From: Patescibacteria group bacterium
GTDB lineage: Bacteria > Patescibacteriota > Doudnabacteria > UBA920
DNA length: 64,000 bases
Assembly: GCA_013387205.1 (NCBI GenBank)
Contig: WARV01000024.1
Location: 11,283 to 75,282 of the forward strand
Direction: 5' to 3'
A model generated the notes under the pieces. The model did not search any database, was not told the origin of the DNA, and worked only from the letters and a program-made list of their open reading frames with translations. Made by a program: the position numbers and the translations under genes. Shown here one piece after another: positions 1,946 to 58,898 of the stretch (positions within the stretch are counted from its first letter, which is position 1; every line of letters begins with the position of its first letter).

Positions 1946-3469
1946 TTAAAAGCTATGGAGATTTTCTATCTTGGCTCCCAGCTTTTTCAGGCGGTTCACC
2001 AAGTCTTCGTAGCCGCGATTTATGGAATAGACATTGCGCAAAACTGACGTACCTTTGGCTGCCAGCATGGCAATTAAAATTATGGCTGCCGGCCGCAAAG
2101 CCGGAGGACAAATAATTTCTGCTGGTTTAAATTCGCTGGGGCCTTCCACAAAAACCCTGTGGGGATCGGCCAAAATAATATTGGCGCGAAGCTTGGTTAA
2201 TTCCATATAATAGATAGCCCGATTTTCATAAACCCAGTCATGGATTAAAGTGGTGCCCGTGGCTTTGGCGGCAATCGGCACGAAGAAGGGAAGGTTGTCT
2301 ATGTTCAAACCGGGGTAGGGCAGGGGATGGATTTTTTCCTCTAAGGCCAAAAGGCGCGATGGATAAGTTTTTATATCGGCCAAGTTTACGTGCCCGTTCA
2401 AGCCTTTGTATTTTTTCAAAATTTTATATTTAAAACCCATCTTTTCCAGTTTCAACAATTCCACTTCCAAAAAATATATCGGGCATCTTTCAATAGTAAT
2501 AGAAGAATCGGTAGTGGCGGCCAAAGACAAAAATAACATTGACTCAATCGGGTCTTCGCTCAAATAGTAACTGGTCGGATGGTTGATATCAGGCTTGCCG
2601 TACACAGTCAGTGTAGACGTGCCAATGCCTTCGATTTTTACGCCTAAGGCAGAAAGGAAATGGCACAAATCCTGTACCATGTAATTTGAAGAGGCAAACT
2701 TGATAACTGTCTTGCCGGGAATTTTACTGGCAGCCATAAGCGCGTTTTCCGTAACCGTATCGCCCATTTCATAAAGCGGGATTTCCGCAGCAGATAATTT
2801 TTCCACACTGACTTCATAATGGTCGTGGGTGGTGTTTATTTTAACTCCCAAATTTTCCAAAGCGAACAAGTGCGGACGCACGGTCCTGGCACCAAGTTTG
2901 CATCCGCCGGCCAAAGGCAGGGAAAAACGCTTAAATAAATGGATTAGCGGGCCAAGAAGCATGAGCACGCTCCTGGTCTTAACCGCTGCTTCAGCATCAA
3001 GCCTGCTTAAATCAAGTTTTTTTGGAGGATTCAACTCCAAATCCGGACCAACCCATTTTATGGCCACCCCTATACTGGTTAGCACTTCCACCAGGCGATG
3101 AACTTCTTCTATGCGAGGCACATTTTTTAAGGTGGTTTTTCCGGAATTAAGCAAGGAAGCGCAAAGTAAAGCCACAGCCGCGTTCTTGGATGTGTTAGTA
3201 GTGACTTTTCCGGACAATTTATGGCCGCCCTGAATTCTAAAGTTCACAGACTGGTCAGCCAAAGTGATAATTTCACGGTTTAAGACGCTGGAGATTTTAC
3301 TAAGCATCTCTGTGCTGAAGTTCTGCTGGCCTTTTTCCATCCTGGCCACTGCGCTTTGCGAAGTTTTCAAGGCTTTGGCGAATTCACCCTGGGTTAAGCC
3401 TTTTAACTCTCTTAACTCCGAAATGAATTTTCCTATTTTTTGCTGTTCTTGGATTGAATTATTTTTCAT
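1946..3469 (-). CDS. murA: UDP-N-acetylglucosamine 1-carboxyvinyltransferase (MurA) with an N-terminal XRE-type helix-turn-helix domain fused
   Basis: 507 aa. Residues 1-70 are a Cro/C1-type HTH (IGKFISELRELKGLTQGEFAKAL..SQSAVARMEKGQ). The rest is full-length MurA (FRIQGGHKLSGKVTTNTSKNAAVALL..). Confidence 0.85.
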   Translation of the reverse strand: MKNNSIQEQQKIGKFISELRELKGLTQGEFAKALKTSQSAVARMEKGQQNFSTEMLSKISSVLNREIITLADQSVNFRIQGGHKLSGKVTTNTSKNAAVALLCASLLNSGKTTLKNVPRIEEVHRLVEVLTSIGVAIKWVGPDLELNPPKKLDLSRLDAEAAVKTRSVLMLLGPLIHLFKRFSLPLAGGCKLGARTVRPHLFALENLGVKINTTHDHYEVSVEKLSAAEIPLYEMGDTVTENALMAASKIPGKTVIKFASSNYMVQDLCHFLSALGVKIEGIGTSTLTVYGKPDINHPTSYYLSEDPIESMLFLSLAATTDSSITIERCPIYFLEVELLKLEKMGFKYKILKKYKGLNGHVNLADIKTYPSRLLALEEKIHPLPYPGLNIDNLPFFVPIAAKATGTTLIHDWVYENRAIYYMELTKLRANIILADPHRVFVEGPSEFKPAEIICPPALRPAAIILIAMLAAKGTSVLRNVYSINRGYEDLVNRLKKLGAKIENLHSF

Positions 3470-3472
3470 TTT

Positions 3473-3562
3473 ATAATCCTAATGCCCCGAATTTTTATCC
3501 GAATGCCCCAAATGAGTCCTGTTTCGGGTCATTTGGATAGGATTCGGATAATTCGAATTATG
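3473..3562. mobile_element. MITE-like repeat family A, copy 2
   Basis: ATAATCCTAATGCCCCGAATTTTTATCCGAATGCCCCAAA...TTTCGGGTCATTTGGATAGGATTCGGATAATTCGAATTATG. Confidence 0.75.
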
Positions 3563-3826: not shown

Positions 3827-4051
3827 TTAGAAATGCAAAATTTTATCAAACCAATTTTCCAAATAATGTGTTTGCAAATTGGTATAATAAATAACCAACA
3901 CACCTGCCAAATATATTACATTTAAAGCCAATACCCTAAGCAGGTCATGCTTAATTACGCGGTATTCCGCGGCATGGTTTAAATACGCATTGGATGTTTT
4001 TTCCGGACTGCCGGATGAAATTTGCTGTTGTTTCTTGTGCTTTTTGCTCAT
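3827..4051 (-). CDS. Hypothetical small protein, one predicted TM helix
   Basis: 74 aa with a basic N-terminus and hydrophobic core. It occupies the position where rpsE would normally follow rplR. Confidence 0.4.
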   Translation of the reverse strand: MSKKHKKQQQISSGSPEKTSNAYLNHAAEYRVIKHDLLRVLALNVIYLAGVLVIYYTNLQTHYLENWFDKILHF

Positions 4052-4172
4052 ATACGAATTTATTGATACTAATATACGAATTAATGCTAATGATACTAAT
4101 GGCTACTAATGCGTACTAAGAAAGAATTAGTTATACATTCGTTTCATTAGTATTCATTGGTAGATTGGTATC
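4052..4172. mobile_element. MITE-like repeat family H, copy 1 (ACGAATT...CTAATGCGTACTAAG...ATTAGT...)
   Basis: Paralogs at 28445-28568 and 47916-48039 share a near-identical AATGCGTACTAAGA(A/G)AGAATTAGTT core. It fills the whole rplR-downstream spacer. Confidence 0.7.
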
Positions 4173-4179
4173 TTTATTG

Positions 4180-4536
4180 TTAAAACTTAAGTCCGCCTTC
4201 CCTGGCCCCTTCAGCCAAAGCTTTTACCCGGCCATGGTACGCGTATCCGCCGCGGTCAAAAACTACGGTTTCAACGCTTTTCTCTTTGGCTTTTTTGGCA
4301 ACCAGCTTGCCGACTTCGGAAGCAATCTCCGACTTTTTGGCTTTGGATTTAATCTCCATGCTGGAAGCGGCTGCTAAAGTCTTACCGCTCTGGTCGTCGA
4401 TCACCTGGGCATAAATATGGCTGTTGGCCCTAAAAACCGATAATCTCGGCCTCTGGCTGGTGCCGCTAACTATACTGCGGACCCTGGCGTGCCTTCTGGT
4501 TCTTTTAATAATTTTGGCTGCGTTGGAATTTTTCAT
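4180..4536 (-). CDS. rplR: 50S ribosomal protein L18
   Basis: 118 aa, [43 protein letters not shown]. Confidence 0.95.
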
Positions 4537-4568
4537 ATCCTATTATCTTTAAAACTAAATTCTTAAAA

Positions 4569-5123
4569 TTATTTGCCGCCTCCGACGACCTTAACAACCT
4601 TACCGGCTTTCCTGACAATGGTTTCATCCGCGTACTTGATGCCTTTGCCTTTGTAAGGTTCCGGCTTCTTGAGTTCCCTGATTTCTGCCGCAAACTGCCC
4701 GACTCTCTGCTTGTCCGCGCCGCTGACAGTAATAACGTTCTTATCTACCGCAACCGTTAGGTCTTTCGGCACCAAAACTTCCACCGGATGGGAAAAACCC
4801 AGGCTCATGGTCAACTTGCCGGCAGCTGCCGCAACCTTGAATCCTACGCCATTGACTTCCAATTTCTTTTCGTAACCTTTGGTAACGCCTTCGATTAAGT
4901 TAAAAATCAAGGACCTGAACAAGCCCCACAAGGCTTTTTCTTTCTTATCGTCCTTCTTTTTTACGTCCACCAAAATTTCTTTTTCCGAAACAGCAACTTC
5001 AACCTTAGGATGGATAAGCAAAGACAAGGAGCCCTTAGGCCCGGTAACGTTCAAAGACGAATCTTTCTTTTCGACTTTGACCCCGGATGGGATGATTACT
5101 GGTTTTTTTCCTATGCGTGACAT
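4569..5123 (-). CDS. rplF: 50S ribosomal protein L6
   Basis: 184 aa, MSRIGKKPVIIPSGVKV. Confidence 0.95.
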   Translation of the reverse strand: MSRIGKKPVIIPSGVKVEKKDSSLNVTGPKGSLSLLIHPKVEVAVSEKEILVDVKKKDDKKEKALWGLFRSLIFNLIEGVTKGYEKKLEVNGVGFKVAAAAGKLTMSLGFSHPVEVLVPKDLTVAVDKNVITVSGADKQRVGQFAAEIRELKKPEPYKGKGIKYADETIVRKAGKVVKVVGGGK

Positions 5124-5192
5124 ATTATTTCAAATACTTATATTAATCCTTAAACTTTATACTTGGTTTAAATAATGATAATTCCGCTGATT

Positions 5193-5298
5193 TCTCGCGG
5201 ATTACTACGCCCCAAAGGGGCCACTCTGTGGCGGATCTCACGCTGATATAATCTTTCCGCGTGTTATCTGCGTTGCTATCTGCGTCCGTTCCGCGGTT
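5193..5298. repeat. Dispersed repeat family G (CGCCCCAAAGGGGCCAC..GTGGCGG plus CTGCGTTGCTATCTGCG modules) in the rpsH-rplF spacer
   Basis: Reverse-complement paralogs at 18258-18290 and 19858-19915. The CTGCGTTGCTATC(C/T)GCG module recurs at 50690-50720. Confidence 0.65.
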
Positions 5299-5691
5299 CT
5301 ACCAGACCTGGCAAACAACTTCGCCGCCAACCCGCTCTTTCCTGGCCTGTTTGTCAGTCAACAACCCCTTGGGAGTGGAAACGACGGTGATGCCGAATCC
5401 GCTATTAGTCCTCGGGAGTTTTTCCATCGACAGATAGATTCTTTGTCCTGGCTTGCTGACTCTCTTTATTCCGGCAATTACCGGCTCTCCGTCAGATCCG
5501 TATTTAAGTTTTATCTGCAGCATCTTAAAGCGGCCTGTCAGTTCCGAGCAGGTGGAAATAAACCCTTCTTTTTCCAGAAGCTTGGCCAGGTTAGCCTTAA
5601 ACTTGGAATAAGGTAAAACCAGCTCTGCCTTGCGGGCACCGCTTGCGTTTCTTATTCTGGTTAACATGTCGGCTATTGGATCGGTATACAT
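5299..5691 (-). CDS. rpsH: 30S ribosomal protein S8
   Basis: MYTDPIADMLTRIRNA. The ATG at 5691 gives the canonical 130 aa. The longer ORF reaching 5730 starts with TTG. Confidence 0.9.
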   Translation of the reverse strand: MYTDPIADMLTRIRNASGARKAELVLPYSKFKANLAKLLEKEGFISTCSELTGRFKMLQIKLKYGSDGEPVIAGIKRVSKPGQRIYLSMEKLPRTNSGFGITVVSTPKGLLTDKQARKERVGGEVVCQVW

Positions 5692-5804
5692 AACATTGAT
5701 AATTTGCAGTTTCCAATTTTCAATTTTCAAACTCTTTATTCTATTGAAAATTGATTAATTGAAAATTCCTTGTAAATTGTAAATTGCTAATTGAAAATTA
5801 ATTA

Positions 5805-5999
5805 TTACCAGCTTGCTTTCACCACGCCCGGGATTTCTCCCTTGCTGGCCAGCTCCCTGAAGCAAATCCTGCAGAGGTCAAAATCCCTCATGTAAGCTGC
5901 TTTTCTTCCGCATTTCCAGCAACGCCTGATAACTCTGGTTGAGAATTTGGGCTTTATCCTGCTTCTTTTAGCTTTTGCGATATGTGCTTGTGTCGCCAT
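5805..5999 (-). CDS. rpsZ: 30S ribosomal protein S14, type Z (zinc-binding)
   Basis: [38 protein letters not shown]. The internal Met start gives about 64 aa. Confidence 0.85.
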
Positions 6000-6082
6000 A
6001 AATCTATCAAATCTCAAGATCCAAAATTCAAAATCCAAATTGGAAATACAACACTGGTTCTTGGATTTTGGTTCTTTAAATA

Positions 6083-6622
6083 TTATTTCTTAAATGGGAA
6101 ACTCATTAAACTTAATAATTCTTTTGCCTCTTCGTCCGTCTTAGCCGTAGTAACTATAGATACTTCGAGGCCGAAAATATTTTCAAGGGCAGCAGCCGAA
6201 ACTTCCGGAAAAACCAATTGCTCCTTAAGCCCTAAATGGTAATTGCCGCGTCCGTCAAAACCTTTAACCGAAACTCCCTGGAAATCGCGGACCCTGGGCA
6301 AAGCAACGTTAATCAGCTTATCCAAAAAACTGTACATCCTGTAGCCTCTTAACGTGGTCATGACTCCGACAACCTGGTTCTCGCGGACTTTAAAACCAGA
6401 AATGGATTTGCGGGCCAAAGTCTTAACCGGAGCCTGTCCGGTAATGTTGGTCAAATCGGCAGCAATCGCGTCAATCTTCTTTTTATCTTCCTTAAACTTC
6501 CCGACTCCGGCGCTGACAACCACTTTTATAATTTTCGGCACCTGCATGATGTTGGAGTATTTAAATCTGGTTTTTAAGGCAGGGATTATATTCTTATTAT
6601 ATTGTTCTTGTAATCGTTCCAT
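6083..6622 (-). CDS. rplE: 50S ribosomal protein L5
   Basis: 179 aa, L5 signature. Confidence 0.95.
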
Positions 6623-6707
6623 AAAATTAGCTTTTAGTTGATAGCTGATAGCTTTTAGGCCTTAATAATTTTATCCTAATGCCTATAAGCTATCAGCTAA
6701 TACCTAG

Positions 6708-7025
6708 TTATACTGCTTTTCCGCTGGCTTTGGCTACTCTTTGCTTGTTGCCGTTTTCCAAATACTTGTATCCAACTCTGGTGGTCTGCCCGGAATTACT
6801 GTCAACCAGCATTACTTTGGAAATGGGCAGTCCGGCTGGAAAAACAACCTTTTTGCCCGGCTGGCCGGCTTGGCGGCTTTTCTCAAACTTGGTGTGCAAG
6901 TTGATATTTTCCACCACTAACCTTGCGGCTTTGGGTAAGACAGACAAAACTTTGCCGGTCTTGCCTTTGTCTTTGCCAGAAATAACCTTAACCGTATCGC
7001 CTTTTTTAATCTTAAATTTAATCAT
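6708..7025 (-). CDS. rplX: 50S ribosomal protein L24
   Basis: 105 aa, KIKKGDTVKVISGKDKGKTGKVL (KOW). Confidence 0.95.
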   Translation of the reverse strand: MIKFKIKKGDTVKVISGKDKGKTGKVLSVLPKAARLVVENINLHTKFEKSRQAGQPGKKVVFPAGLPISKVMLVDSNSGQTTRVGYKYLENGNKQRVAKASGKAV

Positions 7026-7049
7026 ATATTTACTAAATACTAATTTTGC

Positions 7050-7442
7050 CTAAATTACTTCTGGTGCTAATGAAATTATTTTCTTATAGCCGTCTTCAAA
7101 TTCTCCCAGTGCTTTTTCGCGGATTTCCCTTGGGATAGGGCCGAAAATACGGGTGCCTTTCGGTTCGCCGGATTCCTTGTTCACCAAAACGCCGGCATTC
7201 TCGTCAAAACGGATATAGGAACCGTCGGCTCTCCTGGTCTCTTTGCGGGTGCGGACAATAACCGCGTAAACCTTGTCGCCTTTTTTGACCGAGGAGTTGG
7301 GCGCGGCCTGTTTGACTGACCCGGCCACAATGTCGCCTATGCGGGCATACCTGTTGCTGTTCTTGCCGTTAACGCTGAACACGTTGACTATTTTCGCGCC
7401 GGTATTATCTGCTATTTTTATCCAGGAACGTACTTGTAACAT
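7050..7442 (-). CDS. rplN: 50S ribosomal protein L14 (with short C-terminal extension)
   Basis: [17 protein letters not shown].. I placed the start at the internal Met; the ORF extends to 7502. Confidence 0.85.
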
Positions 7443-7521
7443 AGAATTGATTAAATATTTCGGATTTCGGATTGCGGTCCGCCAGCCGGCGGAAATCCGC
7501 AACGCGCAATTCGTATTTGAA

Positions 7522-7767
7522 TTAAATCTTTTTCAAAACTTTAAACTTCTTCTCTTTAGACATGGGGCGGATTGATTCCATAACCACCTTATCGCCTACA
7601 TGATACTCGTTATTTTCATCATGGGCCTTATACTTCTTGGTGATGGTATAAGCCTTCTTGTATTTGGGATGGCGTTTCCTGACATCGACTTTGACAACGA
7701 CTGTCTTGGTCATTTTATCCGAAACCACCATGCCGGTTATTTGCTGCTTTTTTGGTGCTGTATTCAT
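7522..7767 (-). CDS. rpsQ: 30S ribosomal protein S17
   Basis: 81 aa, [27 protein letters not shown]. Confidence 0.9.
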
Positions 7768-7772
7768 AAACT

Positions 7773-7958
7773 TTAGGCTTTTTGCTTAAGATAAGTTAAT
7801 ATTCTGGCAATATCTTTTTTAATAGCGCCAATCTTGTGCGTGTTCTTAAGCTGGTTTAAGCGCATCTTTACGGACATATCCTGGTATTCCTGCTGTAGTT
7901 CTTCCAGCAAATTGCGGATTTCGGCGTCGGTTTTGGCTTTTAATTCTTTAAACTTCAT
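7773..7958 (-). CDS. rpmC: 50S ribosomal protein L29
   Basis: 61 aa, MKFKELKAKTDAEIRNLLEEL. Confidence 0.9.
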   Translation of the reverse strand: MKFKELKAKTDAEIRNLLEELQQEYQDMSVKMRLNQLKNTHKIGAIKKDIARILTYLKQKA

Positions 7959-7960
7959 AG

Positions 7961-8090
7961 ATTTACTTCGTAAATTTTCTACTAAATACTAATTGATACT
8001 AAATGTACTAAATCTTATCCGAGTATACTTAATTGATATCACCGCTGGTATATAGCTTTAGTATATTTCGTATATTTTAGTATTTAGTAG
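7961..8090. mobile_element. MITE-like repeat family B, copy 1 (..CTACTAAATACTAA ... TTAGTATTTAGTAG)
   Basis: Terminal IRs plus a shared 5' leader AGATTTACTTCGTAAATTTTCTACTAAATAC that is identical to copy 3 at 22847. It fills the rpmC-rplP spacer and abuts the L29 start codon. Confidence 0.75.
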
Positions 8091-8095
8091 AGATG

Positions 8096-8506
8096 TTATT
8101 TCTCTTTTATTAAAAACTTGCTCTTTACCGGAAGCTTGTAGCTGGCAAGCCTCATGGCTTCCCTGGCCTGGGCTTCGGTCACGCCGTCCATCTCGAACAT
8201 TATCTTTCCTCTCTTAACAACAGAAACAAAGTGGTCCACAGCGCCTTTTCCGCCTCCCATGGGAGATTCGTTTCCGTGCACGGTCACTGGCTTGTCGGCA
8301 AATACCCTAATCCAAATTTTTCCGCCGCGCTGCACGTATCTGGTCATGGCGCGCCTGGCTGCTTCAATCTGCCTGGCGGTAACCCAGGAGCCTTCCATGG
8401 CTTTTAAGGCGAACCTGCCGAAAGATATTGTTTCTCCGGCAGTGGCCTTGCCCCAGGTGTCTCCCCTATGGTGTTTGCGGTGTTTTAACTTCTTTGGAAT
8501 AAACAT
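8096..8506 (-). CDS. rplP: 50S ribosomal protein L16
   Basis: 136 aa. Confidence 0.95.
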
Positions 8507-8509
8507 GAT

Positions 8510-8640
8510 AGTAAAATTATTCTAATTATTCTAATTATTCTAATTGACCTAAGTAATGTCTAATAATCTAATGCTTTGGGAATTGGGATTTGTTTAGAAT
8601 AATTAGGTTAATTAGGAATTAGGTTAATTTACAAACTCTG
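8510..8640. repeat. Palindromic spacer element (TTCTAATTATTCTAATT... / ...AATTAGGTTAATTAGGAATTAGG)
   Basis: Tandem TTCTAATTA units on the left mirror AATTAGG units on the right. It fills the rpsC-rplP spacer. Confidence 0.55.
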
Positions 8641-8641
8641 G

Positions 8642-9331
8642 TTAGGCTTTGGCTTTTTCAACGCTAGCTGCCTTGCTTTTGACTGATTGATTCTTTTCCC
8701 CAAAAATATCTCCTTTGTAAATCCAGACTTTTATGCCGACAGTGCCGTAAGTGGTAAAGGCAGTGGACCTGGCAAAATCTATATTAGCCCTTAAAGTATG
8801 AAGCGGGATTTTACCGGCTGAAAGATGTTCGGTCCTGGCGATTTCCGCCCCGTTAAGCCTGCCGCCTATGGCTACTTTGGCTCCCTTGGCTCCGGCGTTC
8901 ATTACCTGCTCCAAGGACTGCTTCATCAAGCGGCGGAACGCGACGCGCTTTTCAATCTGTTCGGCAATGCTGTTGGCTACGACTTGGGCCTGCAAGTTAA
9001 TATCGCGGACTTCTTCAATGTTGACTTTCAAATCTTTCTTGATGCCGAGTTTCTGCTTGATCTTTTTCTTGAGTTCTTCAATCCCCGCGCCGCCTTTGCC
9101 TATTATCAATCCAGGCTTGGTGGTTTTAACGATTACGGTAATGGTGCCGTCCCCGGTGCGTTCAATATCAATCCTGACCAGTCCGGCTCTCTTTAAATGG
9201 TCTTCCAAGTACTGCCGTATCTTTACGTCTTCCTGCAAGAGCTTAGTATAGCCGCTCTTGGAAAACCACCTGGATTTCCAGGTATCGGTTATTTTTATTC
9301 TGAACGATGTTGGGTTAATCTTATGGCCCAT
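8642..9331 (-). CDS. rpsC: 30S ribosomal protein S3
   Basis: 229 aa, KH domain. Confidence 0.95.
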   Translation of the reverse strand: MGHKINPTSFRIKITDTWKSRWFSKSGYTKLLQEDVKIRQYLEDHLKRAGLVRIDIERTGDGTITVIVKTTKPGLIIGKGGAGIEELKKKIKQKLGIKKDLKVNIEEVRDINLQAQVVANSIAEQIEKRVAFRRLMKQSLEQVMNAGAKGAKVAIGGRLNGAEIARTEHLSAGKIPLHTLRANIDFARSTAFTTYGTVGIKVWIYKGDIFGEKNQSVKSKAASVEKAKA

Positions 9332-9406
9332 AATATTTTGAACTTATAACTGATAATTTATAACTTATAACTGTTACTAGTTATCAATTAATTGTTATTA
9401 GTTAGT

Positions 9407-9982
9407 TTATACTCCTGCTTTACGGTTAAATAATCTCCTCTTCTGCTGAATTTTATTCATCTTGGTCTGTTCTTCAGTTTTGAAAACCTGGGACTTCTTA
9501 CCTTCCTTGGCCGGAGCTTTTTCTATGCTAGCAGTTTGCGTTTTTTCTCCCTTTACCTGTTCCGTTTCAGCGGATTTTTTGAATATTTCAAACCTGGAAG
9601 CTTTGGCTTTGGAGCGCTTTTTCTCTTCTAAAACTACGTGGATGTGGGACATTCTGCGGTGGATAGTGGAAGCGCTGCCGCGTGCCCTGGGAAAATACCT
9701 CTTCATCACTTTGCCGGCTTCGGCAGTAATGCTTTTGATCTGAAGGCTCTCAGGATCTATGGAAAAATTATGCTTGGCATTGGCGATTGCGGAATTGATA
9801 AGCTTGGTAACCATGCCCGCCGCTTTCTTGTTGGTGTGCTGGAGCTGGATAAGAGCGTCAGTAGCATACATGCCTTTGACCAAATTGGTAACCAGGCGGA
9901 TTTTCCTCGGGGAAATATGGAGATGCCTTGCATGGGCTGTCACCAATTTAGCGATATTTGATTGTTTAGTGTTATCTGCCAT
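9407..9982 (-). CDS. rplV: 50S ribosomal protein L22 with about 70-aa Lys-rich C-terminal extension
   Basis: 191 aa. The L22 core lies in residues 1-120 and is followed by EKKRSKAKASRFEIFKK...KRRLFNRKAGV. Confidence 0.9.
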   Translation of the reverse strand: MADNTKQSNIAKLVTAHARHLHISPRKIRLVTNLVKGMYATDALIQLQHTNKKAAGMVTKLINSAIANAKHNFSIDPESLQIKSITAEAGKVMKRYFPRARGSASTIHRRMSHIHVVLEEKKRSKAKASRFEIFKKSAETEQVKGEKTQTASIEKAPAKEGKKSQVFKTEEQTKMNKIQQKRRLFNRKAGV

Positions 9983-9989
9983 AAATTAA

Positions 9990-10086
9990 TTGAACAAAAT
10001 TTAAAAAATTAAATAAAATTGAACATAATTATAACTGCAGCTTATTTTTGTCTTTTATGTCAATTTTGTCATTTTTGTCATTCCCC
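9990..10086. repeat. Family C spacer element with phased 9-bp TTTTTGTCA/TGTCA direct repeats
   Basis: TAAATTAATTGAACAAAATTTAAA...ATGTCAATTTTGTCATTTTTGTCATTCC. It is about 90% identical to 10425-10528 and its repeats are shared with 38795-38865. Confidence 0.7.
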
Positions 10087-10419
10087 TTACTTCTTCTCCG
10101 GTTCCTTGGCTGCCTGCAGCTTGGCTTTTTCGGCCGCTGCCTTGGCTGCTTCCTGCTCTTTGGCCATCTTACCGCCATGCCTGATGAATTTCCTGGTTAG
10201 GGCGAATTCGCCGAGCTTGTGGCCGACCATATTTTCGGTAACGAATACCGGCATGTGGGCCCTGCCGTTATGGACCAAAAAGGTAAAGCCTACCATCTCA
10301 GGGGCGATTGCGGAATCGCGCGACCAGGTTTTAATCTGGTCTTTTCCCGGACGTCCGGCCAAAACCTTTTTCATTAATTTTGGATCAATAAATGGTCCTT
10401 TTTTTAGCGATCTAGACAT
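10087..10419 (-). CDS. rpsS: 30S ribosomal protein S19 with Ala/Lys-rich C-terminal tail
   Basis: 110 aa. Confidence 0.95.
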
Positions 10420-10424
10420 AAATT

Positions 10425-10528
10425 AATTGAGCAAAATTTAAATAATTAAATAAAATTGAACATAATTGATACTGCAACTCTTGCTTATATTTTTATCATT
10501 TATGTCAATTTTGTCATTTTTGTCAATT
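10425..10528. repeat. Family C spacer element, copy 2
   Basis: See 9990-10086. Confidence 0.7.
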
Positions 10529-11365
10529 CTACTTGCTTCTCCTCTTAACTATCATCCTATTGCTATATTTCTTCTTGGTTCTGGTCTTAACGCCAAGTGC
10601 GTGTCTGCCCCAAGGAGTTTTTGGATATTTCAAACCAATCGGGTTATGGCCTTCTCCACCACCATGAGGGTGATCAACAGGGTTCATCACTTTACCTCTG
10701 ACAGACGGCCTCCAGCCCATTAATCTCTTTCTTCCGGCCTTGCCTATCCGTACGTTCATCCAGTCGGAGTTCGCAACCTGGCCAATAGATGCCAAAGCAG
10801 TTTCCTTGATTTTCCTAATTTCGCCGCTGGGCATTTTAAGCAAAGCATATCCGGCTTCAATGTTCTGCAAAGTGGCGTAGCTTCCGGCGCTTCTGGAAAT
10901 CCTGCCGCCCTGTCCCGGTATCAATTCAATGTCATGGATCAAGGTTCCAACTGGTATCCTGCTTATAGGCAGCCTGTTGCCTGGCTTGATTTCTGCGCTT
11001 TCAGAATAAATAACAGTATCGCCGACTTTCAACCCTTCCGGAGCCAAAACGTATCTCTTAGTCCCGTCTTTGTAAGCGACTAAAGAAATAAATGCGCTGC
11101 GGGTCGGATCGTATTCCAAAGTCTGAACCTTGGCCGGAATATCTTTCTTGTCGATTCTGGAAAAATCAGTGATTCTCAAAACTCTCCTGAATCCCCCGCC
11201 CTGGTGGCGGACGGTAATTTTGCCGCTGTTATTGCGGCCAGCCTGCTTGGTTTTTGCCACGAGCAAATGGCGCGGAGTCTGGACATTCTTCTTTAAAACA
11301 GAATAATCCGTAACACTGTGAATACGCCTTCCTGCAGATGTTGGTTTGTAAATTTTTACGCTCAT
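10529..11365 (-). CDS. rplB: 50S ribosomal protein L2
   Basis: 278 aa. Confidence 0.95.
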   Translation of the reverse strand: MSVKIYKPTSAGRRIHSVTDYSVLKKNVQTPRHLLVAKTKQAGRNNSGKITVRHQGGGFRRVLRITDFSRIDKKDIPAKVQTLEYDPTRSAFISLVAYKDGTKRYVLAPEGLKVGDTVIYSESAEIKPGNRLPISRIPVGTLIHDIELIPGQGGRISRSAGSYATLQNIEAGYALLKMPSGEIRKIKETALASIGQVANSDWMNVRIGKAGRKRLMGWRPSVRGKVMNPVDHPHGGGEGHNPIGLKYPKTPWGRHALGVKTRTKKKYSNRMIVKRRSK

Positions 11366-11378
11366 ATGATTCGCTTTT

Positions 11379-11488
11379 CTACTAAATACTAATTGATACT
11401 AATTGTACTAAATATCATCAAATATACTTAATCGATCTCACTACTGGTATATGCTTTAGTATCTTTCGTATATTTTAGTATTTAGCAG
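11379..11488. mobile_element. MITE-like repeat family B, copy 2
   Basis: CTACTAAATACTAATTGATACTAATTGTACTAAATA...TTAGTATTTAGCAG in the rplB-rplW spacer. Confidence 0.75.
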
Positions 11489-11495
11489 AGATTGA

Positions 11496-11852
11496 TTAAA
11501 TAGTTTCTACCGTTCCTTCTATCTTGTCTCCGTCTTTTAAGGTTACCACGGCTTTCTTAAAACCGCTGGTCTTGCCGCTGACTCTGCCGTAATTCTTGGT
11601 TTTGCCTTTGATGTTTATCATGTTTACCATGACAACTTTGACCTGGTACGCGGTTTCCACTGCTTTCTTTACGGAAATCTTATTGGCAGACTTGGCTACT
11701 TTAAAGACATACTTGTTGCCGGCAACTAATTTTCCGGCTTTCTCGGAAATCCTGGGCTGAACCAAAACGTTTTGAAGCACCTTAGGAAGCTTTCCGGATT
11801 TAGGCTTATCAGCCTGCTTGCTGCCTTCTTCAGTTTTGTTAAAAATTGCCAT
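11496..11852 (-). CDS. rplW: 50S ribosomal protein L23 (N-terminally extended)
   Basis: 118 aa. Confidence 0.9.
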   Translation of the reverse strand: MAIFNKTEEGSKQADKPKSGKLPKVLQNVLVQPRISEKAGKLVAGNKYVFKVAKSANKISVKKAVETAYQVKVVMVNMINIKGKTKNYGRVSGKTSGFKKAVVTLKDGDKIEGTVETI

Positions 11853-11878
11853 ACTGTTTAAACCCTAAAAATTAAATG

Positions 11879-12520
11879 TTACTTTAAATAAGTTTTTTCT
11901 ATGACTTTCAAGCTGTCCTGCAACACTACAACTGAATCAGCCTTGAGCACTTCAACTACATTCAAGCTATTTGCCAGCTTCGGGGTAATTCCGGGAATGT
12001 TCCTGGAAGCCCTCTGCAGATTTTCGTCCTTTTTCGGCATCAAAAACATCTGTTTTTTGCCAATCTCTTTGACGGCTTTTTTCAAACCGGAAAGGATTTT
12101 GACGAACTCTTTAGTCTTAGGCTGGTCCAAAACCATTTCATTGATGACAATAAACTTGCCACTCTTGGCTTTGTCGGAAAGGGACATAAACAGCGCTTTG
12201 GTCTTAGCTTTCTTGTTAAGCTTTAATTCCCAGTTCTGGTTTGCTCTCGGACCGAAAGTGATACCGCCATGCCTCCAAATCGGGCTGCGGATAGATCCGG
12301 CTCTGGCGCGGCCAGTGCCTTTTTGCTTCCACGGCTTCTTGCCGCCGCCGCTGACTTCGCCGCGGGTCTTGGTGTGGGATGTTCCCTGGCGGGAGTTTAA
12401 CCTGGAAATCCTGACAGCTTCGGCCAGCAAATGCATCTGCGGTTTGACGTCAAAAATCTTGGAGTTCAATTCAATCTCGCCGACCACTTCTGCTTTTTGG
12501 TTATAGACATTTACTTTCAT
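11879..12520 (-). CDS. rplD: 50S ribosomal protein L4
   Basis: 213 aa. Confidence 0.95.
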   Translation of the reverse strand: MKVNVYNQKAEVVGEIELNSKIFDVKPQMHLLAEAVRISRLNSRQGTSHTKTRGEVSGGGKKPWKQKGTGRARAGSIRSPIWRHGGITFGPRANQNWELKLNKKAKTKALFMSLSDKAKSGKFIVINEMVLDQPKTKEFVKILSGLKKAVKEIGKKQMFLMPKKDENLQRASRNIPGITPKLANSLNVVEVLKADSVVVLQDSLKVIEKTYLK

Positions 12521-12537
12521 AAAAAAATATTGGTTAT

Positions 12538-12625
12538 ATAATCCTAATGCCCCGAATTCTTATCCGAATGCCCCAAACGGTTCCCTTTTCGGGTCATTTG
12601 GATGAATTCGTAGATTCGGATTATG
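12538..12625. mobile_element. MITE-like repeat family A, copy 3 (inside the S10 operon, rplC-rplD spacer)
   Basis: ATAATCCTAATGCCCCGAATTCTTATCCGAATGCCCCAAACGG...CGGGTCATTTGGATGAATTCGTAGATTCGGATTATG. Confidence 0.8.
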
Positions 12626-13324
12626 CTATTTTTTCTTCTTCTCTTCCTTTACTTCTGTTAATTTGACCAAAGGTTTTACTTTTCCGGTAGAGACAACCTT
12701 AATGGTGGCGTTGCGGTGTCCGGGAACTGCACCTTTAACTGTTATTAAATTCCTTGCTGGATCAACTTCCACAACCTGGAGATTCTTAACCGTAACTTGC
12801 TGGTTGCCCATATGGCCGGCCATTCTCAAGCCTTTGCGGACATGCTGCGGGAAACGCTGACCGATGGAACCGACGCTCCTGGGCTTGTTATGCCCGTGGC
12901 TGGCCGGGAAACCGGCGAAACCGTGGCGCTTAATGGCTCCGGCAAAACCGCGTCCTTTGCTTACTCCGATAACATCTACAACTTCGCCTATTTGGAAACC
13001 TGATAAATCTAATTTCTGGCCCTTTTGATAAGCACTGCTGTCATCAACCCTGAATTCAGCCAAAGCGGCAAAAGACCCTAATTCTTTCAAGTGTCCTTTT
13101 ATGGACTTGTTGGCTTTGACTTTTTTGCCCACGCCGACCTGTACTGCAGAATACTTGTCTTTGCCATCCTTGGCTTTAACCTGGGTGACAATCATTGACG
13201 AGCCCTTAATGACCGTAACTGGGATAACTGTCCCGCTTTGGTCGAAGTACTGGCTCATATTCAGTTTCTTTCCGATAAGAAAATTCATATTTTCCGTTAC
13301 TGTTTCCATTGCTCCGTTTAACAT
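12626..13324 (-). CDS. rplC: 50S ribosomal protein L3
   Basis: 232 aa. Alternative in-frame starts at 13309 and 13288 are possible. Confidence 0.9.
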   Translation of the reverse strand: MLNGAMETVTENMNFLIGKKLNMSQYFDQSGTVIPVTVIKGSSMIVTQVKAKDGKDKYSAVQVGVGKKVKANKSIKGHLKELGSFAALAEFRVDDSSAYQKGQKLDLSGFQIGEVVDVIGVSKGRGFAGAIKRHGFAGFPASHGHNKPRSVGSIGQRFPQHVRKGLRMAGHMGNQQVTVKNLQVVEVDPARNLITVKGAVPGHRNATIKVVSTGKVKPLVKLTEVKEEKKKK

Positions 13325-13384
13325 CTAAAGATATTAACCGTAGATAGGATTACTTAAATAATTAAATACTTTTAGCGTCTCTAT

Positions 13385-13409
13385 CCGCCTTCGCATAAAG
13401 CTTCGGCGG
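13385..13409. repeat. Repeat family K hairpin (CCGCC-TTCGCATAAAGCTTC-GGCGG)
   Basis: Paralogs at 18133-18155, 19236-19270 (rc), 19745-19775, 54866-54885 (rc) and 54941-54965 (rc). Confidence 0.6.
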
Positions 13410-13439
13410 ATTGTTCACTATGTATAAATTAATGTGAAC

Positions 13440-13465
13440 AAAAAAAACGGGTCTGATTTACCCGT
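13440..13465 (-). terminator. Terminator-like hairpin plus U8 tract between rpsJ and rplC
   Basis: The minus strand reads ACGGGTAAATCAGACCCGT followed by TTTTTTTT. Confidence 0.55.
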
Positions 13466-13577
13466 AATAAACTTAAATGGAAAACCATTTAAACTTTTAG
13501 GTAAATCGTTCTCTGGAATCTTGAGCTCTTGAAAGCTTTGGGATAACAGAACTAATCTACAGACATTTTAAGTTTTA

Positions 13578-13904
13578 CTAGCTCATCTTAATTTCCACAT
13601 CCACGCCGGCTGGAAGGTTCAGGTTGGTCAAAGCATCAATAGTCTTAGGAGTTGCTTCTAAAATATCAATTAATCTCTTGTGGACCCTCATTTCAAACTG
13701 TTCGCGGCTGTCTTTGTGCACGAAAGTAGAACGCAACACGGTATATTTGGTGTGTTCTGTAGGCAGCGGGATTGGTCCGGAGATTGTTGCGCCAGTCCTT
13801 TTGGCAGTTTCAACAATCTGCTTAGAGCTCTGGTCAATCAACTTATGATCGTATGCTCTAATCTTGATGCGTATTCTTGGCGGCTTATTTGCGTCCTTGT
13901 CCAT
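13578..13904 (-). CDS. rpsJ: 30S ribosomal protein S10
   Basis: 108 aa. Confidence 0.95.
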
Positions 13905-17636: not shown

Positions 17637-17669
17637 AAAATCGCCGATCTAATTATTTGAGCTATCCTG

Positions 17670-17743
17670 GACCCCGGATCAAGCCCGGGGTGGAAACCAA
17701 GGGTACCATCCCGGAATTTTTCAGGGCTGTGAAAAATATCCGG
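17670..17743. repeat. 74-bp direct repeat, left copy, flanking a GIY-YIG gene
   Basis: CAAGCCCGGGGTGGAAACCAAGGGTACCATCCCGGAATTTTTCAGGGCTGTGAAAAATATCCGGGATCCAGTAC, about 80% identical to 18161-18234. Confidence 0.7.
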
Positions 17744-17792
17744 GATCCAGTACTTATGCTTTAATCCTGAATCAAGTTCAGGACAGGCTCTA

Positions 17793-18086
17793 TTAAATAA
17801 TTTTATTATATAAATCTTCCCAATTAGGATTTATCTTCTCAATTAATTCCAATTTCCATTTTCGATACCATCTTTTTAACTGTTTTTCCCGCTTTATGGC
17901 TTCTTCCCTGTCTTCAAAGACTTCATAATAAACCAATCGATGAACCTGGTATTCTTGAGTAAATCCTTTGACAATGTTGTTTTTATGGGTAAAAACCCTG
18001 TTTACAAGATTATTTGTAAAACCGGTATACAAAGTCCCATTCCTATGACTGGCCAGCATATAAACATAATACACTTTATTATCCAT
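17793..18086 (-). CDS. GIY-YIG nuclease family small protein
   Basis: MDNKVYYVYMLASHRNGTLYTGFTNNLVNRVFTHKNN.. The upstream in-frame extension of the ORF runs into the repeat and is probably not translated. Confidence 0.8.
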   Translation of the reverse strand: MDNKVYYVYMLASHRNGTLYTGFTNNLVNRVFTHKNNIVKGFTQEYQVHRLVYYEVFEDREEAIKREKQLKRWYRKWKLELIEKINPNWEDLYNKII

Positions 18087-18120
18087 TGTTTTTGTATTTG
18101 TTTCTGGCTTTTTCCTGGAC

Positions 18121-18300
18121 CTCGGGTCCCATCCTTCGCATAAAGCTACGGCGGGCACAGCAAGCCCGGGGTGGAAACCGAGGACACCATCCAGGAATTT
18201 CGAGTGTATCGGAGAAATATCCGGGATCCAGTACATATTCGCATTGTATAATTCAGCCACGAAGTGGCCCCTTCGAGGCGTACTTATCGGCGACGTTTCT
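18121..18300. repeat. Composite repeat block (family K hairpin, right 74-bp direct repeat at 18161-18234, family G module)
   Basis: CCTTCGCATAAAGCTACGGCGG, then the CAAGCCCGGGGTGGAAACC..CCGGGATCCAGTAC repeat, then CAGCCACGAAGTGGCCCCTTCGAGGCG. Confidence 0.7.
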
Positions 18301-18305
18301 GCGGT

Positions 18306-19235: not shown

Positions 19236-19272
19236 TTGCCCGCCATAGCTTTACGCGAAGGCTGGGGCGAAG
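19236..19272. repeat. Family K repeat (reverse orientation)
   Basis: CCGCCATAGCTTTACGCGAAGGCTGGGGCGAAGGCGG. Confidence 0.55.
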
Positions 19273-19744: not shown

Positions 19745-19915
19745 ATTGCTTTCACCTTCGCTAAAGCTACGGCGGACAAGTCGGCTGCACTCATAAGACA
19801 TCTAGCCAATTTTAAAGGGCCAACCGTTAGGTTGGCCCTTTCAACTTCAGCGATATATCCGCCACGAAGTGGCCCCTTTGGGGCGTTGCTATCCGCGAGT
19901 AATCCGCGGTACTAC
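19745..19915. repeat. Composite repeat block (family K plus family G modules) downstream of fusA
   Basis: CCTTCGCTAAAGCTACGGCGG ... CCGCCACGAAGTGGCCCCTTTGGGGCGTTGCTATCCGCGAGTAATCCGCGG. Confidence 0.65.
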
Positions 19916-22846: not shown

Positions 22847-22990
22847 AGATTTACTTCGTAAATTTTCTACTAAATACTAATTATTACTAATTGTACTAAA
22901 TATTATCAACCAAGCTTTATTGATATCACTGTTGGTATATAGCTTTAGTATATTTAGTATCCTTTAGTATTTAGTAGAAGTATTAGTAGA
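22847..22990. mobile_element. MITE-like repeat family B, copy 3 (rpsL-rpsG spacer)
   Basis: AGATTTACTTCGTAAATTTTCTACTAAATACTAATTATTACTAATTGTACTAAATA...TTAGTATTTAGTAG. It abuts the S7 start. Confidence 0.75.
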
Positions 22991-24926: not shown

Positions 24927-24964
24927 ATTCCCGGATTTCGAGCGATCGCTCGAAATCCGGGAAT
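24927..24964. repeat. Perfect 38-bp palindrome ATTCCCGGATTTCGAGCGATCGCTCGAAATCCGGGAAT
   Basis: Stem-loop or terminator, or an operator-like site. Confidence 0.6.
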
Positions 24965-25038: not shown

Positions 25039-25072
25039 CATTCCTTCACTACTTCGAAGTAGTGAAGAAATG
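25039..25072. repeat. Hairpin repeat family L, copy 2
   Basis: CATTCCTTCACTACTTCGAAGTAGTGAAGAAATG. Confidence 0.65.
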
Positions 25073-25142: not shown

Positions 25143-25487
25143 TTGCCGGAAAAATTATTGCTTAAAGGGCGCCACTGGAATCAGTTGAAGTTAAGACGGA
25201 AACCATCCAGAAAAGCGCCAGAAAAAATCCAGCTGAGCGATGACCAGTGGGAAGAACTGGTTAAAATCCAAATTCCTGAATGCTATAATAAGCGACTAGT
25301 TGAACAATATATCAAGGAAGCATATCGCCAGCATAAAGAAGGGCAAATAGGAATTTTCATCCCTCCCAATGACCTTGAAAAAGTCAACGAGTGCCTGCGC
25401 AGCGCCAATGTCAAGTTTTTTTTCAGCTGCATTCACGCCCCAGCAGTCGGCAGTAATGAGAGAATGTGCTGGTTTTTTGTTGCTTAA
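25143..25487 (+). CDS. Hypothetical protein (TTG start)
   Basis: 114 aa. AAGGAGG lies 5 nt upstream of the TTG. Family L hairpins flank it on both sides. Confidence 0.45.
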   Translation: MPEKLLLKGRHWNQLKLRRKPSRKAPEKIQLSDDQWEELVKIQIPECYNKRLVEQYIKEAYRQHKEGQIGIFIPPNDLEKVNECLRSANVKFFFSCIHAPAVGSNERMCWFFVA

Positions 25488-25573: not shown

Positions 25574-25602
25574 ATTTCTTCACTACTTCGAAGTAGTGAA
25601 GT
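25574..25602. repeat. Hairpin repeat family L, copy 3
   Basis: CATTTCTTCACTACTTCGAAGTAGTGAAG. Confidence 0.65.
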
Positions 25603-28075: not shown

Positions 28076-28187
28076 CATAATCCGAATTACCCAAAAAATA
28101 TCCTAATAACCCGAAAACAAGACCAACCAAAGGTTGGTCTTGTTTATTTAGGGGCATTCGGATGCTAATTCGGGGCATTAGGATTAC
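28076..28187. mobile_element. MITE-like repeat family A, copy 4 (reverse orientation)
   Basis: CATAATCCGAATTACCC...GGGGCATTCGGATGCTAATTCGGGGCATTAGGATTAC. Confidence 0.75.
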
Positions 28188-28189
28188 AT

Positions 28190-28444: not shown

Positions 28445-28568
28445 AATTACGAATTATACTGACCAATCTACTAATGTAACGAATAAAGCGAATGACAACT
28501 AATGCGTACTAAGAGAGAATTAGTTGTCATTGGTTATTATTAGCATGAATTCGTTGATTGGTTAATCC
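28445..28568. mobile_element. MITE-like repeat family H, copy 2
   Basis: It fills the entire spacer between the MGMT start and the DUF3048 stop. Confidence 0.7.
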
Positions 28569-35296: not shown

Positions 35297-35650
35297 TTAA
35301 GATTTTTTTCCTGCGGAATTTTTCGTAGAAAACATTATTGCTGTAATTTCATCAGCTTCCTTTAATAATGGTTCAACTAAATTTATTTTCATCAATTTTG
35401 AATCAATTATCATTTCCAACCAAAAACAACTTTCATCTGATTCTTCAACCACTATTCCGATTTTCGCAACGAATTCCTGTTTTGATCTTGATCTGCAAGC
35501 AGCGCGATAATTAACCGCTACTGCAGTCCCAGATCTCAGTAATTGATTTCCTATTACCCTACCTGCATCATTTCTTGGTAAAGCTTGGGTTAACTTAATA
35601 ATCCTAAGAGCGAATTGTTTCGTCCTATTTTTTAGATCTTGTTTATCCAT
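35297..35650 (-). CDS. Four-helix-bundle protein (TIGR02436 / 23S rRNA intervening-sequence protein family)
   Basis: 117 aa, ..QLLRSGTAVAVNYRAA..SKQEFVAKIGIVVEESDESCFWLEMI. Confidence 0.8.
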   Translation of the reverse strand: MDKQDLKNRTKQFALRIIKLTQALPRNDAGRVIGNQLLRSGTAVAVNYRAACRSRSKQEFVAKIGIVVEESDESCFWLEMIIDSKLMKINLVEPLLKEADEITAIMFSTKNSAGKKS

Positions 35651-38646: not shown

Positions 38647-38865
38647 AGATTAAATGACAAAATTGACAAAATTTAAATAATTAACATAAATGACGCTTGG
38701 CGTCATCCTGAGCGAATGCAGCTGAGCGAAGGATCTCTTGAGCAACAAGAGAAGATTCCTCGGCTGCACTCGGAATGACAACTTCATATAAAATAAGGTT
38801 TGTCATTTTTGTCATTTATGTCATTCTCGTCGTTTTTGTCATTTGGATTATTTTTGTTTCCATAT
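38647..38865. mobile_element. Composite palindromic element: TGACAAA(A) 9-bp direct-repeat arrays flanking a GTCATCCTGAGCGAATGC...GCACTCGGAATGAC inverted-repeat core
   Basis: The core at about 38690-38790 is paralogous to in-frame insertions at 41181-41325 (leuS) and 49920-50070 (M24 peptidase). The flanks share TTTTTGTCA units with family C. Confidence 0.7.
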
Positions 38866-38901
38866 TTTTCCTAATATCTAAAAACTAAAACCTATAACCT
38901 G

Positions 38902-42033: not shown

Positions 42034-42086
42034 AATAGTATATTCATTATTTCCTCTCCCTTTAGGGAGAGGGTGGGGTGAGGGGG

Positions 42087-47915: not shown

Positions 47916-48039
47916 ATTAACGAATTAGCTTGACTAATCAACTAATGTAACGAATATTACCAATGATAACTAATGTTATCTAAGTAAGGATTAGTTGCCA
48001 TTAGTTATTATTAGTATGGATTCGTAGATTAGTTAATTA
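47916..48039. mobile_element. MITE-like repeat family H, copy 3
   Basis: It fills the NUDIX-M16 spacer exactly, from start codon to stop codon. Confidence 0.7.
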
Positions 48040-58780: not shown

Positions 58781-58898
58781 AATTATCCTTTGCCCTTGTT
58801 TTAAACAAGGGCACATGAAATGATTTGCGCGTTGACGATGACTTGGTTTAAGTCCTCGCTGTACCCGCAAACCATTTCTTAATTATTTTTAAAAATTT

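Follow-up and report, generated by a model that had tools for sequence, protein, structure and literature searches.

Most intercistronic spacers of the S10-spc ribosomal-protein operon in a 64-kb stretch of Patescibacteria (Candidate Phyla Radiation, CPR) DNA, referred to here as the window and derived from a genome near Candidatus Doudnabacteria, are filled by long imperfect palindromes, and the favoured explanation, which is given a probability of about 0.6 from sequence comparison, is that non-autonomous palindromic repeat families have colonised the DNA, with a filter imposed by the limited tolerance of an essential operon that lacks Shine-Dalgarno (SD) sequences. The operon is made up of 18 ribosomal-protein genes, all on the minus strand and arranged in the canonical S10-spc order (rpsJ-rplC-rplD-rplW-rplB-rpsS-rplV-rpsC-rplP-rpmC-rpsQ-rplN-rplX-rplE-rpsZ-rpsH-rplF-rplR), with identities confirmed by Pfam, and its S3 protein is at best 87% identical to a counterpart from the genome collection, in a metagenome-assembled genome, and 85% to one from the metagenome collection; the window's own genome is absent from both, and an exact look-up of S3 gave no match. 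From rpsJ to rplR, the 17 intercistronic spacers measure 289, 105, 26, 130, 109, 104, 75, 135, 137, 5, 79, 24, 85, 83, 113, 175 and 32 nt; 13 of them are expanded (75–289 nt) and the remaining four are compact, and the spacer between rplR and the following small open reading frame (ORF), orf74, is also expanded (128 nt). A preliminary description of this DNA had reported structured spacers of 90–130 bp in an operon that normally keeps its spacers below 30 bp. The abnormal structured spacers are borne out, with 12 of the 13 expanded spacers each formed by one long imperfect hairpin, and the size range needs correction. The usual packing was observed as well, as the median S10-spc spacer is 0–30 nt in about 100 unrelated bacterial loci searched with the same query, and the expansion is therefore real and unusual. 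Preferential colonisation of the operon was considered and rejected, as 13 of the 17 operon junctions have a spacer of at least 60 nt and so do 29 of the 43 other co-directional ones (p = 0.55); about 18% of the window is non-coding.

Apart from rpsJ-rplC, every expanded spacer consists in essence of a single long imperfect inverted repeat, whose arms measure 20–45 nt and display a complementarity of 72–91% in the window, as listed in Table 1. The elements are 60–140 nt long, reaching about 250 nt, contain no ORF, and are present in 2–4 copies per family within the 64 kb, to which all copy counts in the window refer, and at least 10 unrelated word families are found within the one operon. The extra window copies of families A, B, C, G and H and of the small hairpin K are always intergenic, so the earlier report of multi-copy families elsewhere in the window holds for all six. 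The family B element of the rplW-rplB spacer exhibits 89% identity to that of the rplP-rpmC spacer and 84% to the copy outside the operon, and the sequence common to the latter two extends fully up to the ATG. The family C element of the rplB-rpsS spacer, with 31 Watson-Crick pairs in its arm alignment, is 86% identical to the decayed element of the rpsS-rplV spacer, for which the RNA fold is no better than shuffles (z = +0.9). The family G composite resembles 19847-19914, in inverted orientation, and 18253-18304; the core of family K, CCGCCGNAGCTTTATGCGAAGG, is found in four copies, distributed over the two strands of the window, where 0 would be expected by chance. For the rplV-rpsC hairpin no second copy was found within the window, and an element related to that of the rpsZ-rpsH spacer is located in the same spacer of the relative L081. 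In L002 and L003 the rplN-rplX spacer holds full elements, whose 3' end is matched by the motif TTAGTATTTAGTA at 7031-7043 in the remnant that occupies this spacer in the window. The hairpins listed in the preliminary description were recovered, and two items had been missed, namely the rpsQ-rplN hairpin and this family B remnant. That all strongly folding intergenic regions belong to the same kind of element was rejected, as several outside the operon are ordinary G+C-rich terminators.

Different spacer states were observed among the relatives, in which the operon was annotated at about 25 Doudnabacteria loci (numbered with the prefix L), with gene starts placed by tblastn and the nearest start codon. 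The median spacer is 74–114 nt in eleven genomes of one clade and in L010, and 5–19 nt in L006, L007, L012 and L013; L009, which is nested beside the window's genome, displays a median of 9 nt, and at least two lineages of the ribosomal-protein tree show the expanded state. The expansion is thus present in some related genomes and absent from others, as the preliminary description had proposed to examine. In the all-versus-all spacer comparison, paralogues inside one genome give the strongest matches (L004, 99% over 233 nt; L002, 100% over 103 nt), one family is found in different spacers of different genomes, and up to 5–6 copies of a single family lie inside one operon of the relatives. Orthologous spacers are highly similar, empty, or hold unrelated families; small G+C-rich palindromes are nested inside elements of L003, L004 and the window; and one-arm remnants are seen, such as that of the rplN-rplX spacer. 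Elements turn over between relatives by gain, replacement, deletion to a one-arm remnant and nested insertion, and this comparative pattern suggests that they are mobile. In L001, L004, L010 and L083, the last 5–10 codons and the stop codon of rplD lie in the left arm of an element, and the L4 proteins of these loci were seen to carry a Lys-rich C-terminal extension of 5–10 residues from the repeat arm. The same style of word-built hairpins was also noticed in S10-spc spacers of the distant Patescibacteria L017, L061 and L052, with the words TACGAAT and ATTCGTA, and AGTCAAA and GACTTT.

The anatomy of the elements was assessed in 188 expanded spacers of related operons, with counts that are not independent, as copies share descent. 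At least 14 Watson-Crick pairs are formed in 172 of the 188 spacers; the hairpin starts at a median of 3 nt past the stop codon and ends at a median of 10 nt ahead of the ATG, the leftover leader before the ATG is 78% A+T, and SD-like motifs are present in 6 spacers. Between copies with different flanking genes, the similarity usually spans from stop codon to ATG. Internally periodic arms amount to 167 of 318, with period 7 (86 arms) exceeding periods 9 (39) and 8 (26), and the distances between successive TAG-TAG and CTA-CTA words show a sharp peak at 7–8 nt. As the words contain TAG or TAA and their periods of 7 and 8 are not divisible by 3, stops soon fall in every reading frame at both element ends; closure of all three frames within 30 nt is seen for 26% of spacers in sense and 37% in antisense, versus 10–11% of shuffled sequences.

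A near-uniform orientation was likewise observed, with 176 pairs of copies in the same and 4 in inverted orientation (matches of at least 60 bits); only 7 of 349 intergenic regions in the related loci lie between genes of the other strand, and replication and transcription biases are therefore inseparable here. The most depleted trinucleotide of the sense strand is ATG, at 0.40 of expectation (complement CAT, 0.58), and the most depleted tetranucleotide is TATG, at 0.22 of expectation (complement CATA, 0.43), the difference between sense and complement having a p of about 0.001–0.006. The depletion of TATG matters because about 90% of the ribosomal-protein starts have T (U) at -1, together with A-rich positions -5 and -6; this start context is alike in expanded and compact genomes, and no SD motifs were found at ribosomal-protein starts of the window and its relatives. 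As indicated by the AUG depletion and the uniform orientation, the mRNA strand is under translational selection.

According to the favoured colonisation by mobile repeats, the elements would have spread through the intergenic DNA of a sub-lineage of Candidatus Doudnabacteria, with similar ones in other CPR lineages, as selfish or near-neutral inserts co-transcribed with the operon. Co-transcription with the flanking genes is suggested by the position inside the operon and by the absence of T-runs after the hairpins: the terminator scan called none of the intercistronic repeat hairpins as an intrinsic terminator, and its minus-strand calls are limited to the rpsJ-rplC leader and the site after orf74. 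Inside the essential SD-less operon only translationally inert copies would survive, that is, copies that fold on themselves, are free of AUG, leave or supply an A/U-rich leader with U at -1, and have a weakened hairpin on the sense strand. Side effects on the mRNA are possible, the hairpins perhaps serving as barriers to the polynucleotide phosphorylase (PNPase) encoded in the window or as processing sites. Of the earlier suggestion that the operon tolerates colonisation by elements resembling miniature inverted-repeat transposable elements (MITEs), the colonisation part is thus favoured, based on presence and absence among relatives, 99–100% identical paralogues, shared families, nested inserts and remnants, though not as something specific to the operon; the strict MITE part is not supported, as no target-site duplication exceeds chance and no transposase was found in the sequence searched.

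Several observations weigh against this explanation. Target-site duplication is not above chance in the 116 elements tested, with flanking direct repeats of at least 3 nt in 22 elements versus 23.3 expected, of at least 4 nt in 5 versus 6.5, and of at least 5 nt in 0 versus 1.9; repeats of 2 nt were observed 69 times versus 60.5 +/- 4.6, and as the element ends are somewhat fuzzy, a duplication of 2 nt is possible. No transposase was found in the 64-kb window (Pfam, 65 ORFs) or in about 450 kb of related loci, and transposition is therefore inferred rather than shown. The four-fold degenerate sites are only 48–58% identical in the pairs L003/L015, L002/L015 and L002/L003, whereas several orthologous spacers in those pairs are 85–93% identical and others unrelated, which therefore does not correspond to neutral decay of old insertions; from the sequences, such conservation would require either constraint, be it from a role in the host or from a mobilising protein that recognises the elements, or else a recent horizontal spread combined with turnover. 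The word cores are also invariant across six genomes and thus change far more slowly than under neutral decay, and a function on the mRNA could account for the near-uniform orientation just as well.

The elements are not classical MITEs, nor are they repetitive extragenic palindromic (REP) sequences. They share with MITEs the inverted repeats, the small size, the multiple copies and the lack of a transposase gene, and the missing duplications together with the strict orientation argue against a classical DDE-type MITE; a strand-specific single-strand (HUH/Y1-like) mechanism or a copy-choice mechanism would fit both features better than a DDE transposase. They are extragenic and palindromic as REPs are, and their length and at least 10 unrelated word families differ from the 14–40 nt palindromes with a common consensus that define REPs. 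The gene of a REP-associated tyrosine transposase (RAYT) was not found by Pfam among the window ORFs, and an eye scan of 109 accessory ORFs in relatives revealed nothing transposase-like, just one GIY-YIG ORF. The only structures seen to bracket window ORFs are arms of neighbouring hairpins and a palindrome pair around 25143-25487, a 114-aa ORF without family that is flanked by two copies of TTCACTACTTCGAAGTAGTGAAG; small perfect palindromes are present at 24928-24962, 25044-25068 and 25577-25601. The exact arm motifs of families A and B gave 0 matches in viral contigs, and there is therefore no sign of a phage vector.

The rpsJ-rplC spacer stands apart from all others. It had been described earlier as a family K hairpin plus terminator, and both of these are present; its core is a conserved structured RNA and not a repeat, with repeats in this spacer limited to hairpins around the leader, family K included. 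The leader ends in an intrinsic terminator (stem 13465-13447, followed by an eight-T run in the terminator scan), is conserved at all Doudnabacteria loci, and was aligned over 14 of them, compact-operon genomes included. In its main helix 94% of cells are paired and compensatory changes occur in 8 of 14 pairs, the variants are G·U and not A·C, and the observed covariation is reached by 0 of 500 shuffles and also beats all slid controls. The covariance model R1 matches the leader in Doudnabacteria only, among 40 sources searched. Rfam gave nothing relevant at E <= 10 in 13280-13620, and over the 64 kb three tRNAs alone reach the gathering score. The region 13435-13563 is accordingly a candidate lineage-specific ribosomal-protein leader or attenuator upstream of rplC. 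The S10 leader of E. coli is regulated by L4, and the leader found here resembles it as a conserved structured RNA with a terminator and covariation inside the S10 operon, but unlike it lies after rpsJ and not before, lacks an Rfam match, and is confined to the Doudnabacteria among the loci searched.

This leader serves as a positive control within the same operon, as covariation is seen there and none in the repeats. Folded as sense RNA, 8 of 12 spacers reach z <= -2.5 against 200 dinucleotide shuffles, with a summed minimum free energy (MFE) of -265 kcal/mol, and folded as antisense RNA 10 of 12 do so, with a summed MFE of -311 kcal/mol; for the rpsC-rplP hairpin, the MFE is -18.6 kcal/mol in sense versus -31.6 kcal/mol in antisense. 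Mismatches between the arms are A·C in 369 and G·U in 258 cases, and purine-purine exceeds pyrimidine-pyrimidine. In an 11-copy family from six genomes, the word cores are invariant and compensatory changes are found in 1 of 16 pairs, with a covariation term of +0.47, and in family B and its relatives a systematic one-sided change places TACGAA opposite TTAGTA and unpairs every word. The word invariance, the weak covariation and the A·C excess therefore indicate that the sequence words, not the pairing, are conserved, and selection for RNA structure in the repeats is not supported.

These results bear on the foremost alternative, unlikely as it is, that the elements are intercistronic RNA modules maintained by the host for RNase III-type processing, for stabilisation of 3' ends against PNPase, or for a juxtaposition of stop and start that permits re-initiation or shunting. 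The hairpin that reaches nearly exactly from stop to start, with common sequence running to the ATG, is what such modules would exhibit, but an end-to-end palindrome inserted in a 3–20 nt spacer gives the same geometry. The conservation of some orthologous elements well above synonymous sites also agrees with host maintenance, while other orthologous spacers are often empty or hold unrelated families and sister genomes get by on spacers of 3–20 nt. The 176:4 orientation relative to transcription, the AUG-poor sense strand, the conserved U at -1 without SD sequences and the PNPase gene in the window are all compatible with a role in the mRNA; the excess of A·C over G·U, the greater stability of the antisense strand, the absence of covariation and the elements that hardly fold as RNA are not. 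The co-option as RNA processing or translational-coupling elements that had been offered earlier as the alternative to colonisation has thus gained no positive support.

A more specific proposal, regarded as quite unlikely, is that the cassettes represent a lineage-specific intercistronic punctuation of SD-less CPR bacteria, in the form of stop-to-start modules with heptad words (UAG, CUA) that are read by a protein. If so, the modules would direct the processing or stabilisation of individual cistrons, or would let ribosomes shunt to the U-AUG start 10 nt beyond, and the host or a domesticated nuclease would be the driving force of their spread; the conservation above synonymous sites, the invariant words and the orientation would then be explained together.

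The word arrays might instead be DNA or RNA binding sites of a sequence-specific protein, with the hairpin secondary to inverted arrays of sites, although this is improbable. The reader of the words could be a transposase or nuclease, a nucleoid protein, or an RNA-binding regulator of UAG repeats at 7-nt spacing. The periodicity of more than half of the arms (period 7 ahead of 9 and 8) and the 7–8 nt spacing of TAG and CTA words suit such arrays, but could come from slippage within arms. Across genomes the cores AAAGTT/AACTTT and TTAGTA stay the same whereas the intervening bases differ, and TACGAA facing TTAGTA loses the pairing and keeps the word, as expected of recognised sites; the many word families would nevertheless demand many proteins or a loose specificity, and no candidate protein was found.

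Still more doubtful is an origin of the hairpins in place, by intra-strand template switching and word slippage followed by local copy-choice or gene conversion, without transposition. The missing target-site duplication, the same orientation of copies that often lie in neighbouring spacers of one operon, and the microsatellite-like arms are consistent with it, but copies of one family are located 10–45 kb apart in the window between unrelated genes, families are common to different spacers in genomes with saturated synonymous sites, and both orientations are seen for families A and G and for the small hairpin K. That the pattern results from faulty assembly or binning of a metagenome-assembled genome is very unlikely, as the same architecture recurs in over 15 assemblies made independently by different projects with different assemblers, an element is shorter than a read pair, and the flanking genes are intact and in conserved order.

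Table 1. Repeat elements of the S10-spc operon and associated features of the window, with the basis of each call or its folding score.
Feature	Coordinates	Strand	Basis and remarks
Family A hairpin, rplC-rplD spacer	12521..12625	-	z = -4.4; further copies 3469-3562, 558-662, 28076-28189
Family B hairpin, rplW-rplB spacer	11366..11495	-	z = -3.5
Family B hairpin, rplP-rpmC spacer	7959..8095	-	45-nt arms; z = -4.9 sense, -6.7 antisense
Family B copy outside operon, rpsL-rpsG spacer	22847..22978	-	sequence comparison
Family C element, rplB-rpsS spacer, GACAAAA words	10420..10528	-	weak RNA fold, z = -1.9
Family C element, decayed, rpsS-rplV spacer	9983..10086	-	inverted repeat
Family C-type arms around nested G+C-rich hairpin element, about 115 nt	38647..38901	-	
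Hairpin, rplV-rpsC spacer, heptad AGTTATA words	9332..9406	-	z = -2.5
Hairpin, rpsC-rplP spacer, CCTAATT and AATTAGAAT words	8507..8641	-	inverted-repeat search
Hairpin, rpsQ-rplN spacer, G+C-rich core, ATCCGAA words	7443..7521	-	fold
Right-arm remnant of family B-type element, rplN-rplX spacer (24 nt)	7026..7049	-	
Near-perfect palindrome, rplX-rplE spacer, GCTGATAGCT and AGCTATCAGC words	6623..6707	-	z = -5.3
Hairpin, rplE-rpsZ spacer, CCAAAAT and ATTTTGG words	6000..6082	-	z = -3.2
Hairpin, rpsZ-rpsH spacer, TTTTCAAT and TTGAAAAT words	5692..5804	-	inverted-repeat search, fold
Family G composite, rpsH-rplF spacer, CGCAGATA and CGCGGA words and G+C-rich hairpin	5124..5298	-	
Family H hairpin, rplR-orf74, at operon break	4052..4179	-	z = -3.6 sense, -5.8 antisense; further copies 28445-28568, 47916-48039
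Two small hairpins 3' of leader	13383..13439	-	GTTCAC...GTGAAC 13413-13439; family K 13383-13411
Family K core CCGCCGNAGCTTTATGCGAAGG copies	13388-13409, 18133-18154, 19240-19261, 54955-54976	-, -, +, +	
Conserved structured RNA with intrinsic terminator, not a repeat	13435..13563	-	between rpsJ and rplC
Promoter-like site	14079-14051		sequence scan
rpsJ, first gene of run	13904-13578	-	Pfam
rplR, last gene of run	4536-4180	-	Pfam
Terminator-like hairpin, after orf74	3766-3741	-	terminator scan
PNPase gene	56471-58870		Pfam

The spc operon was seen to be interrupted after rplR, in the window at 3827-4179 and on down to 1946. The relatives continue past rplR with rpsE-rplO-secY, none of which was found anywhere in the 64-kb window, and here rplR is followed by the family H repeat, the 74-aa orf74 without family and, at 1946-3469, a fusion of helix-turn-helix and EPSP-synthase-like parts; recombination between repeat copies is a possible cause of the break. 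The nested G+C-rich hairpin in 38647-38901 is of the GTCATTCC...GGATGAC type, and look-alikes are present in Buchananbacteria operon spacers (L061, L052) and around the GIY-YIG gene of L085. A small GIY-YIG ORF (about 18086-17796) was also noticed in the window, among ORFs without known function between fusA and tuf (17660-18305, minus strand) and flanked by direct repeats of roughly 90–125 nt; in the 1012-nt rplB-rpsS spacer of L085 a similar ORF is inserted, flanked by GTCATTCCCG...CGGGAATCCAG hairpins, and these ORFs may represent a second class of mobile element in such operons. Two further genes lie among the housekeeping genes on the minus strand of the window, namely a gene of the 23S rRNA intervening-sequence-protein family and a DUF559 endonuclease-like gene (35297-35650 and 42087-42452), and four-helix ORFs resembling the former were seen as accessory genes in relatives. 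The leucyl-tRNA synthetase (38902-42090, minus strand, 1062 aa) contains an inserted serine-hydrolase/alpha-beta-hydrolase domain at residues of about 433–616.

CPR/Patescibacteria are considered to have streamlined genomes, and tightly packed, translationally coupled genes are exemplified in textbooks by the S10-spc operon. The present pattern suggests that even the most conserved bacterial operon is open to colonisation when the inserts create no false translation starts, and it offers a natural experiment on the limits of tolerance in an essential SD-less operon, which here are an absence of AUG, stops arriving early in all three frames, and a leader in which the U at -1 is kept. If mobile, the repeats would constitute an undescribed type of element with word-array arms, strict orientation and no target-site duplication; if functional, they would represent a new way of organising polycistronic mRNAs. 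The rpsJ-rplC leader and its terminator provide a testable new candidate for a ribosomal-protein autoregulatory RNA. In practice, such repeats inflate intergenic DNA and can mislead gene callers through C-terminal tails and spurious ORFs on the opposite strand, and they may drive rearrangements, the operon of the window being broken after rplR at a family H copy.

No description of such repeats in CPR/Patescibacteria, Doudnabacteria or Parcubacteria was found in the literature searched. TIGR arrays consist of units of about 36 nt repeated in tandem next to a Tas gene, and a resemblance to them was dismissed, as the hairpins here are isolated, the words measure 7–9 nt and the window contains no such gene. 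The 2025 RepRanger survey of REPs does not mention Patescibacteria. REPs are extragenic imperfect palindromes known to act on the stability of mRNA and on ribosomes close to the stop codon (PMC12306157). The window elements resemble REPs and their composite forms, bacterial interspersed mosaic elements (BIMEs) and REPINs, which are mobilised by RAYTs in Enterobacteria and Pseudomonas, in being extragenic imperfect palindromes between cistrons or after stop codons, in lacking target-site duplications and in their probable co-transcription. REPs, however, are 14–40 nt long with one consensus per class, whereas the hairpins here are 60–140 nt long, belong to many families without a common consensus, and have arms built as arrays of 7–9 nt words, with no RAYT in the sequence searched; and unlike the alternating pairs of BIMEs and REPINs, they are single hairpins in one orientation.

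Correia, ERIC, RUP and Nezha elements are short non-coding MITEs with terminal inverted repeats, stem-loop RNA and multiple copies (PMC3184786). The elements of the window are comparable with these (Correia being of Neisseria) in being about 100–150 bp long, non-coding, multi-copy and intergenic, with presence and absence among relatives, and differ in the lack of target-site duplications and of a cognate insertion sequence, in an inverted repeat that spans the whole element rather than its termini, and in their near-uniform orientation; similarity to the Correia, ERIC, RUP and Nezha sequences was looked for through Rfam only. In other systems, some organelle genomes (e.g., Volvox, Chlamydomonas) have intergenic DNA packed with palindromic repeats, and the early genes of phage T7 are separated by RNase III sites. 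The operon described here is similar to both in having hairpins between nearly all genes of a polycistronic unit, but offers no evidence of hairpin processing, and the lineages and sequences are unrelated. A further parallel is provided by the Rickettsia palindromic elements (RPEs; listed in PMC3184786), which are likewise palindromic repeats in a small host-dependent genome that give codons to proteins, as the L4 tails do here; RPEs insert in frame within genes, whereas the Doudnabacteria elements contribute just the last 5–10 codons and the stop codon and are otherwise intergenic.

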